A DNA stretch of 5,138 nt from a virus. Its lineage: Duplodnaviria; Heunggongvirae; Uroviricota; Caudoviricetes. The notes under the pieces were generated by a model, which did not search any database, had not been told where the DNA came from, and saw nothing but the letters and a program-made list of their open reading frames with translations. How positions within the stretch are numbered: the stretch's first letter is position 1; every line of letters starts with the position of its first letter. The DNA is taken from the IMG/VR virus record IMGVR_UViG_2675903600_000008. One strand, 5' to 3'. The translations under genes were made by a program, and so were the position numbers. This document shows positions 1-5,138 of the stretch, piece by piece.

Positions 1-39
1 CGCAGACGATGACGTCACTGCCCGGCTGTATGCGCGAGG

Positions 40-315
40 TTACCGACTGCGGCCTGAGTTTTTTAAGTGACGTAAAATCGTGTTGAGGCCAACGCCCATA
101 ATGCGTGCAGTGGCCCGGCATCCAACGCCATTCATGGCCATATCAATGATTTTCTGGTGCGTACCGGGTTGAGAAGCGGTGTAAGTGAACTGCAGTTGCC
201 ATGTTTTACGGCAGTGAGAGCAGAGATAGCGCTGATGTCCGGCAGTGCTTTTGCCGTTACGCACCACCCCGTCAGTAGCTGAACAGGAGGGACAGCTGAT
301 AGAAACAGAAGCCAC
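40..315 (-). CDS. insA: IS1 InsA (transposition inhibitor; N-terminal part of the InsAB' transposase)
   Basis: The 91-aa translation [37 protein letters not shown]...LKNSGRSR matches IS1 InsA from memory, including the Cys-rich zinc-finger-like N-terminus. The stop lies just past the A6C slippery site. Confidence 0.95.
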
Positions 316-347
316 TGGAGCACCTCAAAAACACCATCATACACTAA

Positions 348-370
348 ATCAGTAAGTTGGCAGCATCACC
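348..370. repeat. IS1 terminal inverted repeat (insA-side end)
   Basis: Sequence ...agtaagttggcagcatcacc ending at 370 is the reverse complement of GGTGATGCTGCCAACTTACT. The base composition changes abruptly to AT-rich non-IS DNA at 371. Confidence 0.9.
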
Positions 371-449
371 GAAGTGGTAAAGAAGATAATAAAGAATAAT
401 ATTTAGGGTTATAGGTCTTAGCCCATTTTAAATGGAAGGCAGACATGCA

Positions 450-470
450 GCCATGCATACTTCGCATGGC
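450..470 (-). terminator. Hairpin immediately 3' of the membrane-protein ORF (possible terminator or protein-binding palindrome)
   Basis: GCCATGC (450-456), 7-nt loop, GCATGGC (464-470) form a perfect 7-bp stem. It lies 8 nt downstream of the TAA stop at 478-480 on the minus strand. No clean U-tract follows, so terminator function is uncertain. Confidence 0.3.
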
Positions 471-477
471 AACATAA

Positions 478-819
478 TTATTTAGACAAACTATCTAATT
501 TTTGCGTCGCTTTTTGTGTTAGGTCGCTGTAACTGATAAACCCTACGTTAGCACCTACAATTAACACTAAGAACACTAAGCTGCATATGGATAGAGTGGC
601 AGATTTATGCTTATGGAAAACAAAATATGCTACTATTGCACTTAATATGAAGGAAATGAATAGAAATATAGATGTTGATGTTTTTAGATATTTTTCAGGA
701 AATAATGGGTGAGCAATAATGTATACAAGATTAAGTAGTATATAAATTGCTACCGGAATGAAAATCATGCTCCAGTGTGTATCTTTTTTGGGAGGGATTG
801 GCTGCAAATAATCAGACAC
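478..819 (-). CDS. Hypothetical small integral membrane protein (about 3 predicted TM helices), unknown function
   Basis: ORF of 113 aa if started at GTG 817-819, or 96 aa if started at the internal ATG 766-768 (MIFIPV...). Three hydrophobic stretches: IFIPVAIYILLNLVYIIAHPLF, IFLFISFILSAIVAYFVF, LSICSLVFLVLIVGANVGFISY, with a hydrophilic C-terminal tail. Low GC, on the same strand as and 82 bp downstream of the 125-aa ORF. I do not recognise the family. Confidence 0.6.
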   Translation of the reverse strand: MSDYLQPIPPKKDTHWSMIFIPVAIYILLNLVYIIAHPLFPEKYLKTSTSIFLFISFILSAIVAYFVFHKHKSATLSICSLVFLVLIVGANVGFISYSDLTQKATQKLDSLSK

Positions 820-901
820 CGTTTTTCCATCAGTTTCAAGAAGAATTACTAGATCTCTTACTTCACCACTGACTTGAGTGCATCCTTAGTAGTAATGTTA
901 A

Positions 902-1279
902 TCATTTTTTCCCTCCAAATACGATGCCCTCTACGTCTTTGGAAGCTTTTTGTGATGACCACTCCTCTGAATCAGGTGATTTAATTAAAAATATTGTATC
1001 TCCATCAAAAATCGTATTTGTTCCGTAAAAATTCACATTTGATAGATCACCACCAAAAACCCTCTGCCCACTCGAGGTAATTGCCTCACCTAATTTAGTA
1101 AAATTACCAGCAATAGATGATTTTCTTTTTCCACTTCTATTCAAAGTGGCTTTAATTACACCACCACCATCCTTAGAGTTAAATAATTGAATGTCCACTC
1201 CAGCAGTTGGTTGTATATATTTTGAAAGCTCTTTCTTGAACTTGTTAATATATTTATCTTTGTTTTCTTTGTTGGTCAT
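902..1279 (-). CDS. Hypothetical soluble protein (125 aa, Lys-rich N-terminus, Gly-rich C-terminal half), unknown function
   Basis: ATG at 1277-1279, TGA at 902-904. No signal peptide or TM segment visible. AT-rich codon usage unlike the flanking phage genes. A candidate promoter -10 (TATACT on the minus strand, plus coordinates 1316-1321) lies about 35 nt upstream. I do not recognise the family. Confidence 0.6.
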   Translation of the reverse strand: MTNKENKDKYINKFKKELSKYIQPTAGVDIQLFNSKDGGGVIKATLNRSGKRKSSIAGNFTKLGEAITSSGQRVFGGDLSNVNFYGTNTIFDGDTIFLIKSPDSEEWSSQKASKDVEGIVFGGKK

Positions 1280-1451
1280 TGGTTAGATCCATAGTTCTGG
1301 CTGTGATTAGGTGAAAGTATACAAGGTTTTTAAAGCGAAGATCACTGTTTTGGCTTCAAGATAGTTTTGATTTATCGTAATCAATCCGCCATAATCCTCT
1401 CATCGGAGCCTGAACAACTCCGGTGACTTCTGCGCATTTAAGGGGACTTAA

Positions 1452-1547
1452 ATGCGACCACAATCTGAACTCATCACCTTGTCACAGATGCAGAAATGCA
1501 CCTGCGATTTTCTGCATTCTGCGGTTTCCGTTAGGGAGGCCGTATGA
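1452..1547 (+). CDS. Small ORF (31 aa) coupled to ybcN; possibly the YlcH-like micro-protein found upstream of ybcN in DLP12-type prophages
   Basis: ATG 1452-1454 is preceded by AAGGGGA at 1440-1446. Translation is MRPQSELITLSQMQKCTCDFLHSAVSVREAV. Its TGA (1545-1547) overlaps the ybcN ATG (1544-1546) as ATGA. Too short for the ORF track; coding status not proven. Confidence 0.35.
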   Translation: MRPQSELITLSQMQKCTCDFLHSAVSVREAV

Positions 1548-1999
1548 CTCTGCCAGTAGACGGCATCAAACTCCATCGCGGTAACTTCGCGGCCATCGGC
1601 CAGCAGATTCAGCCATTGCTGGATGCCGGGCAATGCTTACGCCTGCAGGTTAAGCCGTGGCGCGAGAAGCGCAGCCTGTCGCAGAACGCGCTCAGCCACA
1701 TGTGGTACACGGAGATCAGCGAATATCTCATCGCCCGCGGCAAGACCTTCGCTACGCCTGAGTGGGTCAAAGACGCGATGAAGCACACCTATCTCGGCTA
1801 CGAAAGCAAAGACCGTGTAGATGTCGTGTCCGGCGAGGTCACCACCGTCCAATCCCTCCGCCATACGTCAGAGCTGGAAACCGGCGAGATGTACATCTTC
1901 CTGTGCAAAGTCGAAGCCTGGGCGATGAATATCGGCTGCCACCTGACAATTCCGCAGAGCTGTGAATACCAGCAGCTGCGCGATAAGCAGGAGGCGTAA
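1544..1999 (+). CDS. ybcN: YbcN / NinB-position protein of lambdoid prophages (151 aa)
   Basis: The 151-aa translation (MTLPVDGIKLHRGNFAAIGQQ...CEYQQLRDKQEA) matches my recollection of E. coli DLP12 YbcN in length and sequence, and it occupies the ninB slot directly upstream of ninE. Strong RBS GGGAGG at 1533-1538. Confidence 0.8.
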   Translation: MTLPVDGIKLHRGNFAAIGQQIQPLLDAGQCLRLQVKPWREKRSLSQNALSHMWYTEISEYLIARGKTFATPEWVKDAMKHTYLGYESKDRVDVVSGEVTTVQSLRHTSELETGEMYIFLCKVEAWAMNIGCHLTIPQSCEYQQLRDKQEA

Positions 2000-3033: not shown

Positions 3034-3417
3034 ATGCGTGATATTCAGATGGTTCTTGAGCGTTGGGGAGCGTGGGCGGCTAATAATCATGAAGATGTGA
3101 CCTGGTCGTCCATTGCCGCCGGTTTTAAGGGATTAATTACTTCAAAAGTAAAATCTCGCCCGCAATGTTGTGACGATGACGCGATGATTATTTGCGGGTG
3201 CATGGCCCGTCTGAAAAAGAACAACAGCGATTTGCACGATTTATTAGTAGATTATTATGTAGTCGGTATGACATTCATGTCACTGGCAGGTAAGCATTGC
3301 TGCTCTGATGGTTATATCGGGAAAAGGTTACAGAAGGCTGAGGGCATAATTGAAGGGATGTTAATGGCATTAGATATCCGGTTAGAGATGGATATCGTTG
3401 TTAATAACTCTAATTAA
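3034..3417 (+). CDS. quuD: Q-family late-gene antiterminator (DLP12 QuuD-like), 127 aa
   Basis: Translation from ATG 3034 ([24 protein letters not shown]...[18 protein letters not shown]...) matches recalled QuuD, with Cys-rich zinc-binding motifs. RBS GGAG at 3023-3026. The ORF-track start at 3019 (TTG) is an upstream extension. Confidence 0.9.
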
Positions 3418-3450: not shown

Positions 3451-3468
3451 GGGGCGTTGCAACGCCCC
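3451..3468 (-). terminator. Intrinsic terminator hairpin in the convergent quuD/nmpC intergenic region (probable nmpC terminator)
   Basis: GGGGCGTTGCAACGCCCC is a perfect GC-rich palindrome (7-bp stem, 4-nt loop). On the minus strand it is followed by ATTTTTAATAATTTTTAG, a T-tract; on the plus strand it is followed by CAAAAATAAA, which is A-rich and not a U-tract. Confidence 0.6.
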
Positions 3469-3534: not shown

Positions 3535-3590
3535 AAGTGGCTTGAGGGAGCCACTTATATGTTGGGGAGGCAAAGCCTCCCGCAACATAT
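3535..3590. other. Two adjacent stem-loops in the nmpC 3' region
   Basis: Hairpin 1: AAGTGGCT / AGCCACTT (3535-3542 and 3549-3556), 8-bp perfect stem with a 6-nt loop. Hairpin 2: ATATGTTGGGGAGGC / GCCTCCCGCAACATAT (3557-3590), about 15 bp with one bulged C and an AAA loop, followed on the plus strand by CTTTTAG. Function unassigned. Confidence 0.4.
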
Positions 3591-3605: not shown

Positions 3606-4688
3606 TTAGAACTGGTAAACCATACCTACAGCAACGATATCATCGGTAGCAACGCCAGATGCTTTCGTGAAATCGCTCTTATCAATCAGGTTGATTTTGT
3701 AATCAACAAAAGTGGACATATTTTTGTTGAAGTAATAGGTTGCACCTACATCAATATATTCAACCAGGTCCTGATCACCCCACGCACCCAAGTCTTTTCC
3801 TTTAGATTGCAGGTAAGCAACGGACGGACGCAGACCGAAGTCGAACTGATATTGTGCAACTACTTCGAAGTTTTGTGCTTTGTTGGCAATATGGTTATTA
3901 CCAAAAACAGTCATGTTCTGGGTTTCAGAATAGGTGGTAGCCAGATAGATGTTGTTCGCATCATATTTCAGACCAGCTGCCCATACTTCAGCATTTTGAC
4001 CAGATGCATTCAGGCTGTTGTTACCGTAGATAACCTGATTATTAGTGCGGTCAGATTTAGCATAGGTTGCACCTACACCGAATCCTTCATACTCATAAGT
4101 AGTGGAGAAACCGAAACCATCACCATTAGCTTCAGTTACGTCAGTGCGGTCATTTTTACCCTGATACTGAGCAGCAAAGTTCAGACCATCAACCAGACCA
4201 AAGAAGTCGTTGTTACGATAAGTTGCAACACCAGTGGTGCGACCAGTCATGAACACATCTGTTTGAGTCCAAGTGTCACCACCGAATTCTGGCAGGACGT
4301 CAGTCCACGCACCGATGTCGTATGCTACACCGTAGTTACGGCCGTAATCGATGGAGCCGTAGTCACCGAATTTCAGGCCAGCGAAGGCAAGACGGGTTTT
4401 ATCTTTGGAGGAACCTTGAGATTCAGCGCGGTTGCCTTTGAATTCATATTCCCACTGACCGAAACCAGTCAGTTGATCGTTGATTTGGGTTTCACCTTTG
4501 AAGCCAAGACGGGCATAAGTAGTATCACCATCATCTGCATCATTAGAGGAGAAGTAGTGCTTAGCATTAACTTTCCCGTACAGATCCAGCTTGTTACTGT
4601 CTTTATTATAAATTTCAGCTGCCTGAGCAGACATCGCCATCAGTACTGATGCAGCTACAGCAGAAATTGCCACTGTTAATTTTTTCAT
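3606..4688 (-). CDS. nmpC: Outer-membrane general porin, NmpC/OmpD family (prophage-borne), 360 aa precursor
   Basis: Translation from the internal ATG 4686-4688 gives [23 protein letters not shown]|[16 protein letters not shown]..., a classic signal peptide with an AXA cleavage site and porin N-terminus. It has alternating beta-strand character and the porin C-terminal ...VAVGMVYQF. Sequence matches recalled NmpC/OmpD. The 20-codon N-terminal extension in the ORF track (to 4748) is rejected. Appears uninterrupted within this window. Confidence 0.93.
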
Positions 4689-4967
4689 CGTGAGCCCTTT
4701 TTTTGAACTATTATTAAAAAATGATGTCATTGCGCGATAAATATTCATCTAATCAATGTGATTATTTCAAGATGTAAGTTTTGGTTTCTCGTTTGATTTG
4801 TGAAGTAGATCTCTATTTTTATCTGAACTTTTTTCTATCGAATCCTATTCATGGCTCTTGACTGAATAAAAATAAATCTATTAGCCAATTTATATTAACG
4901 GCTGTTATTTATAAGTGCTCTATAATTTGAAGGTTCAATTTAAACCGGCTAAAAATAACACTGGAAA

Positions 4968-5078: not shown

Positions 5079-5138
5079 GGTAATGACTCCAACTTATTGA
5101 TAGTGTTTTATGTTCAGATAATGCCCGATGACTTTGTC
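5079..5138 (-). mobile_element. IS1 insertion sequence, partial (insB-distal terminal 60 bp; element continues right of the window)
   Basis: GGTAATGACTCCAACTTATTGATAGTGTTTTATGTTCAGATAATGCCCGATGACTTTGTC is the other IS1 terminus (inverted repeat plus the 3' end of the insB frame on the minus strand), from memory. Same orientation as the IS1 at 1-370. Confidence 0.9.

Follow-up and report, generated by a model that had tools for sequence, protein, structure and literature searches.

The window analysed here, a stretch of DNA of 5,138 nt, contains two minus-strand ORFs between the remnant of a replication protein P gene and ybcN, at 478–819 and at 902–1279 (125 aa). The earlier note took the former for the gene of a small multi-pass membrane protein, a candidate effector, whose start was ambiguous, GTG819 or ATG768. 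The locus therefore raises the questions of where this gene begins, whether the copy in the window can work, and what it does together with its neighbor.

The window holds a 4.7-kb remnant of a DLP12-like lambdoid prophage of Shigella sonnei, with IS1 at both ends, and is composed of the following elements around the two ORFs:

1–370, minus strand: IS1 end, with insA at 40–315 (InsA Pfam domains) and a 23-nt terminal inverted repeat at 348–370
371–399, plus strand: 3′ remnant of the replication protein P gene, cut by IS1
1544–1999, plus strand: ybcN/NinB-like gene of the nin region
downstream genes, plus strand: ninE, ybcO, rusA and ylcG, nin region of a DLP12-like lambdoid prophage
ending at 3417, plus strand: quuD, nin region
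3606–4688, minus strand: porin gene, annotated as ompC in relatives
5079–5138, minus strand: second IS1 end, whose inverted repeat at 5079–5101 pairs with that at 348–370

Position 370 of the window corresponds to position 8001 of L001, a locus with an intact allele, in which the P gene stops at 8030. Both IS1 copies read in the same orientation from their repeat sequences, and the remnant thus resembles the inside of a composite IS1 structure. The prophage porin gene (3606–4748, minus strand), nmpC-like as in DLP12, appears intact in the remnant; the ORF list gives it 380 aa from an upstream ATG, as compared to the 360 aa annotated in relatives. Between the convergent quuD and porin genes lie two perfect GC-rich hairpins, one at 3451–3468 (GGGGCGTTGCAACGCCCC) with A/T runs on either side and the other at 3566–3582 (GGGAGGCAAAGCCTCCC), both of which are probably terminators.

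The gene limits 478–819 did not survive alignment to the intact alleles of L001 and L002, which identified a longer gene (hereafter gene B) behind the 125-aa gene (gene A). The elements of the pair are as follows:

902–1279, minus strand: gene A, intact, encoding a 125-aa soluble basic protein (pI 9.5; WP_000182282 family, PHROG 18061), its TGA overlapping the gene B ATG
911–916, minus strand: Shine-Dalgarno sequence GGAGGG of gene B, 5 nt before ATG905, within the C-terminal Gly-Gly-Lys-Lys codons of gene A
478–905, minus strand: gene B, here a pseudogene, frameshifted relative to the intact gene for a conserved membrane protein of 142 aa (WP_000608370 family, PHROG 16940)
881, minus strand: site of a one-base deletion in codon 9, where one G of a GG doublet is missing (GATGGC to GAT-GC; GGC to G-C)
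858–905, minus strand: peptide now encoded from the native start, MINITTKDALKSVVK, followed by the stop TAA 860–858 (frame-0 translation)
478–819, minus strand: residual open frame, 113 aa from GTG819, carrying TM1–TM3 and the C-terminal tail

The native start of gene B is ATG 905–903, which overlaps the TGA stop of gene A in an ATGA. GTG819 and ATG768 correspond to V30 and M47 of the native 142-aa protein and are both internal codons. The ambiguous start of 478–819 is an artefact of the frameshift, and the initiation signals are weak because neither candidate codon is the native one. In the window, translation from the native start ends after 15 codons, and the region encoding MINITTKDALKSVVK forms the end of a minus-strand ORF at 858–962. 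When the deleted G was put back at 881, translation yielded a 142-aa protein identical to the product of E. coli A7. In the PGAP annotation of E. coli A7, BH100N and 536, gene B is 429 nt long, encodes 142 aa (WP_000608370.1) and overlaps gene A (WP_000182282.1) by 4 nt. Homologues of gene B form 17 clusters from E. coli/Shigella, Enterobacter and Klebsiella, and all full-length members have 142 aa, bar two over-extended gene calls. By sequence profile, the window copy belongs to the WP_000608370/PHROG 16940 family, and it lies directly downstream of, and overlaps, the ~125-aa gene A. However, the intact 142-aa frame that joins the N-domain (1–36) to the three transmembrane (TM) helices is broken: only positions 30–142 of the 142 profile positions of PHROG 16940 are matched (E = 2.2e-74), in an open frame detached from the native start.

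The same break recurs in S. sonnei. An identical 113-aa product is annotated as a hypothetical protein in about 100 S. sonnei contigs, and six S. sonnei loci share the gene spacing and IS1 neighbors of the window. Several of the S. sonnei short-read contigs with the allele are ~5.1 kb long, breaking at IS1 copies. Of 46 complete E. coli genomes that have the cassette, not one carries the deletion: all align 97 bases to the 96-base query and thus have the extra base. The proteins of the window are 99–100% identical to their E. coli counterparts, and over 1,144 bp the cassette differs from that of E. coli A7 by two synonymous changes in gene A and the deletion, with nothing else, so that the inactivation of gene B is recent. 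The frameshift allele is real, and it is widespread in and specific to S. sonnei; a sequencing error in the window was ruled out by the same shortened product in many independent S. sonnei assemblies. A separate proviral contig (IMGVR_UViG_2627853732_000001) matched gene B over residues 10–142 only, at 98% identity, as expected from the S. sonnei frameshift allele.

As a minus-strand ORF, 478–819 does exist, with 113 aa when read from GTG819 and 96 aa when read from ATG768, and its initiation signals are as weak as had been reported, without a strong Shine-Dalgarno at either codon and with a GGAG ending 1 nt before ATG768. On the other hand, the proposal that this weakness reflects tuned low expression of a toxic product is contradicted by the strong Shine-Dalgarno of the native start, which the frameshift has cut off from the rest of the gene. 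A functional three-TM effector of 96–113 aa, made from GTG819 or ATG768 at a deliberately low level, would be in keeping with the open frame from GTG819 to 478, identical to the intact protein, with the annotation of the 113-aa ORF as a protein in S. sonnei records, and with the physical possibility of reinitiation 39 nt after the premature stop. However, neither codon has a usable Shine-Dalgarno, both are internal in every intact homologue, with no full-length member starting there, and residues 1–29 of the most constrained domain would be missing. The allele moreover sits in a decaying IS1-bounded remnant of a pseudogene-rich lineage, and the sequence between 905 and 858 reads without a slippery run that could restore the frame, which also rules out a programmed frameshift. 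We consider such an effector very unlikely, although some low-level reinitiation at GTG819 may occur in S. sonnei. Rather than a working effector, the copy in the window is a pseudogene, the widespread S. sonnei allele. With high confidence, we regard 478–905 as the inactivated second gene of a conserved two-gene cassette, whose intact gene B is translated from ATG905 in coupling with gene A, with GTG819 and ATG768 as internal codons.

The intact gene B product is predicted to be an inner-membrane protein. Its acidic soluble N-domain of ~44 aa precedes three TM helices, of which TM2 and TM3 are joined by a basic K-x-K loop, and the protein ends in an amphipathic C-terminal tail. The three strongly hydrophobic segments of ~20 residues (47–68, 78–97 and 104–125 of the repaired protein) reach peaks of 2.4–2.5 in 19-residue Kyte-Doolittle windows and are modelled by AlphaFold2 as long helices with pLDDT 85–92, in agreement with the three helices described in the earlier note. 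Its description of a charged C-terminal tail also holds, SDLTQKATQKLDSLSK being both charged and amphipathic. The net charge of the TM2–TM3 loop is positive throughout the gene B family, from which an N-in, C-out topology is predicted.

The best-conserved part of gene B is the stretch of residues 1–36 (MIxITTKDGTQxSGEVxDLxILLExxGKxVSDYLQP). Comparison of the E. coli with the Klebsiella alleles gave dN/dS values of 0.077 (gene A) and 0.09 (gene B), and the value falls to 0.03–0.07 in gene B codons 1–36, where synonymous sites are saturated; the N-terminal stretch of gene B is therefore translated. A chance ORF was ruled out by the conservation across genera and the dN/dS of about 0.09. In the wide gene B family, only G14 and W45 are invariant, and no polar pore-lining residue is conserved throughout. 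A specific channel function is thus uncertain, and B could be a mere membrane anchor.

Gene A matches PHROG 18061 with E = 9e-85, and G122, G123 and K124 are invariant in its family. At E ≤ 1e-3, an exhaustive profile search for gene A found 111 representatives, most of which are standalone proteins with 120–135 aa. In a single metagenomic protein of 447 aa (P0118; L024 246–1589), the gene A domain (7–119) is fused to an HNH endonuclease (191–231, E = 1e-12), while the C-terminal region of about 200 aa is unannotated; the 77 nt of contig left downstream contain no start of a B-like ORF. This fusion may count towards A being a regulatory or sensor domain. Four other relatives of gene A (P0097, P0130, P0146 and P0150) bear N-terminal extensions of 85–110 aa with no Pfam match, that of P0097 resembling a signal or membrane segment.

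Neither protein could be assigned to a described family. Every member of the wide alignments was scanned against Pfam and NCBIfam, with no match for A or B. The window proteins were unmatched at E ≤ 1 among the 5,027 models of PADLOC-DB v2.0.0, and the wide A and B families gave only matches at E ≥ 0.002, from one member each and scattered over unrelated models. PDB sequence searches with the family profiles gave nothing significant, fold comparison gave no informative match, and literature searches under the accessions, PHROG numbers, locus tags and UniProt entries found no paper on either protein. The only family matches are PHROG 16940 for B and PHROG 18061 for A, both annotated as “unknown function”. 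Two labels were rejected. The match to 7TMR-DISM_7TM (E = 1.4e-4) scored 22.3 bits against a cut-off of 29 bits and reflects hydrophobic composition. The JGI source label of the 142-aa B, a predicted Fe2+/Mn2+ transporter of the VIT1/CCC1 family, was not accompanied by a match to the VIT1 domain (Pfam PF01988) even at E ≤ 1; it looks like an annotation error and could propagate.

The pairing of A and B is preserved over a wide range of contexts, from prophages of E. coli, Klebsiella and Enterobacter to Photobacterium and metagenomes. In eight prophage loci, comprising E. coli alleles and Klebsiella/Enterobacteriaceae alleles of 66–68% identity, the order is always A then B, while the loci differ in their replication modules (O/P, DnaB-type or DnaC-type), nin genes and Q genes. 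Among remote members of the gene A family, all five examined are directly followed by a gene of 128–137 aa or by a gene truncated by the contig end. Identity to these remote relatives is about 20–35%, and their B-like genes retain the layout of gene B: a soluble N-domain of ~35 residues, one Gly and one Trp that are invariant (the Trp opening TM1), three TM helices, a basic TM2–TM3 loop and an amphipathic tail. The overlap between A and B is 4 nt (ATGA) in E. coli and Klebsiella, and 1 nt in L008, a diverged prophage locus, and in more distant members. Judging from the ATGA overlap and the GGAGGG Shine-Dalgarno, A and B are translationally coupled in the intact alleles, which upholds the coupling to the upstream 125-aa gene that had been considered for 478–819.

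Lambdoid prophages carry the cassette between their replication and nin genes, in antisense orientation to both, and it is flanked by two candidate elements of its own:

1316–1321, minus strand: candidate −10 element TATACT of the cassette promoter, 37–42 nt upstream of the gene A ATG, with a weak −35
450–470, minus strand: GC-rich hairpin GCCATGC-N7-GCATGGC, beginning 8 nt after the gene B stop

Diverged cassettes have a −10-like hexamer at the corresponding position (TATGAT in Klebsiella and TATAAT in L008); in the window, the element at 1316–1321 is below the threshold of the promoter scanner and was not called. The hairpin is kept in the E. coli, Klebsiella and L008 cassettes and is one base pair longer in the last two. 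It has no clear T-tract after it, and is a candidate for a cassette terminator or an RNA-stabilizing hairpin. From its orientation, the conserved −10-like element and the downstream hairpin, the cassette looks like an independent antisense accessory module. In some E. coli relatives, a 32-aa ORF (WP_224922665.1; L002 5084–5182 and L043 3119–3217) is annotated just upstream of ybcN, overlapping the ybcN start, in the intergenic region whose other strand holds the candidate promoter of the cassette.

In L008, an Enterobacteriaceae prophage, the slot between the replication and nin genes carries further cargo besides the cassette, at 5297–6980 and 8750–10603: a colicin-like gene (377 aa) with a Colicin_im-like one (174 aa), and a DndB-like gene (373 aa) accompanied by a small HNH gene. 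The slot may thus collect competition or defence cargo. Remote copies of the cassette adjoin PIN and DUF4160/DUF2442 genes or lie between transposases. Outside prophages, the few contexts seen are variable regions and not classic defence islands; in one of them, in Photobacterium phosphoreum, the genes for A (125 aa) and B (130 aa) share 1 nt. The prophages carrying the cassette include those of UPEC 536, ETEC and Klebsiella pneumoniae. The cassette was seen in proviral contigs only, as compared to none among isolated-phage records (tblastn of gene B against 50,697 records).

What might the intact pair do? Tentatively, and at less than an even chance, we propose by analogy that the intact cassette is a Rex-like phage-exclusion module, in which a cytoplasmic A would act on the N-domain of a membrane effector B, the effector half having been lost in S. 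sonnei. The cassette would be a “moron”, an accessory module of the prophage with a transcript of its own, antisense to the phage early operon. Protein A would bind or control the conserved cytoplasmic N-domain of B, and upon a phage cue, B would compromise the inner membrane (abortive infection) or block entry. In S. sonnei, the frameshift would have removed this effector half. The acidic character of the B N-domain (pI 4.9) and the basic character of A (pI 9.5) may count towards a contact between the two. An intact A is tolerated in S. sonnei next to a broken B, and B is therefore no antidote that A would require. Since the cassette looks like an autonomous accessory module, defence or exclusion, as the earlier note had raised for the window gene, may be a reasonable hypothesis for the intact cassette, again by analogy. 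Taken as one account, a frameshifted gene B from an otherwise Rex-like cassette comes just short of an even chance in our judgement.

Functionally Rex-like prophage pairs have been described in two mycobacteriophages, as gp30/gp31 of Sbash (PMC6426596) and gp30/gp31 of Butters (PMC7542560), and a RexAB-type system in P. putida (PMC12894663). RexAB of lambda and these pairs resemble the cassette in that the gene of a cytoplasmic protein precedes that of a small multi-pass inner-membrane protein of about 140 aa in temperate phages, and in that the module lies among lytic genes, oriented for independent expression. The resemblance of the cassette to RexAB, an adjacent pair of one soluble and one small multi-pass membrane protein in a prophage, is architectural only. 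Neither A nor B (E ≤ 1 in PADLOC for the window proteins), nor their wider families, shows sequence homology to RexA or RexB in Pfam or in PADLOC, which presumably includes RexAB models. RexA has 279 aa as compared to the 125 aa of A; RexB has four TM helices, whereas B has three and a conserved soluble N-domain; and RexAB adjoins the repressor, whereas the cassette is placed between replication and nin genes. The cassette thus departs from the Rex-type families in sequence, TM number and genomic position, and shares their design alone. The superinfection-exclusion proteins HK97 gp15, P22 SieA and T4 Imm, expressed from a prophage or phage, are also small inner-membrane proteins, which block DNA entry by other phages. 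However, they act alone, whereas B has a strictly conserved and translationally coupled soluble partner; B also differs from them in that its cytoplasmic domain is the most constrained part, and no homology was detected.

The same observations were weighed for other functions. The intact pair could be an unrecognized, widespread two-gene anti-phage system, in which a small cytoplasmic sensor A of a new fold would control the three-TM B through the N-domain of B, and in which the sensor domain would occasionally be rewired to an HNH nuclease effector; we find this broader version rather doubtful. A toxin-antitoxin or addiction module, with B as a small membrane toxin and A as its co-translated antidote, would stabilize the prophage or mobile element instead of sensing phages, and could still give abortive infection as a side effect. 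The cassette indeed resembles type II toxin-antitoxin operons in its two short genes overlapping by 1–4 nt, as in many such pairs, and in its residence on prophages, by transposases and near PIN and DUF4160/DUF2442 genes. The loss of the downstream partner in S. sonnei, with A kept, is likewise the direction of decay expected if B were toxic. However, A has no recognizable DNA-binding antitoxin domain and no Pfam match at all, no related model matches either protein, and the putative toxin would be a three-TM membrane protein. With 142 aa and three TM helices, B is much larger than the classic membrane toxins Hok and TisB, and its conservation peaks in the soluble N-domain rather than in the TM helices. 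An addiction module is unlikely, in our view.

Lambdoid morons also include non-defence cargo, such as the porin, bor and iss genes of the same prophage type, and the pair might serve a lysogenic-conversion function at the membrane that has nothing to do with phages, for example in transport, in envelope stress or in interaction with the host, A being its cytoplasmic accessory. The VIT1/CCC1 label from one source points in this direction, but lacks Pfam support, and three TM helices without conserved polar residues are unlikely to form a transporter. The strict pairing and the mobile-element contexts better suit conflict systems, and we judge cargo of this kind distinctly unlikely. As for a holin or lysis-timing protein, the small size, the three TM helices and the charged C-terminal tail of B recall class I holins, and a few weak BFVD matches (E > 0.6) are holins. 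However, gene B lies in the early region, antisense to its neighbors and several kb from the lysis cassette, and the prophage has its own holin (essD) and endolysin (rrrD) elsewhere. B matches no holin in Pfam or PHROG, and it is always paired with a soluble protein and not with an endolysin, the pair occurring also outside prophages. A lysis role is highly improbable; from the earlier description, the small multi-pass prophage membrane protein paired with the 125-aa gene stands, whereas its holin-like role is unlikely.

For S. sonnei, gene B of the window is itself an unremarkable gene in decay, within a Shigella prophage remnant riddled with IS elements, and the hypothetical protein of 113 aa found in annotations is a fragment. 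What is newly defined is a compact, strictly paired and strongly constrained two-gene module, without domain annotation and absent from PADLOC (2023), that forms an independently oriented insert in medically relevant prophages. If it proved to be an addiction module or ordinary cargo instead, the finding would be routine. Nevertheless, the cassette family is a fair candidate for a new exclusion system, and since intact alleles exist in standard strains, exclusion would be easy to test. If exclusion were borne out, the Rex-like class would gain a small design in which a sensor is combined with a membrane effector.
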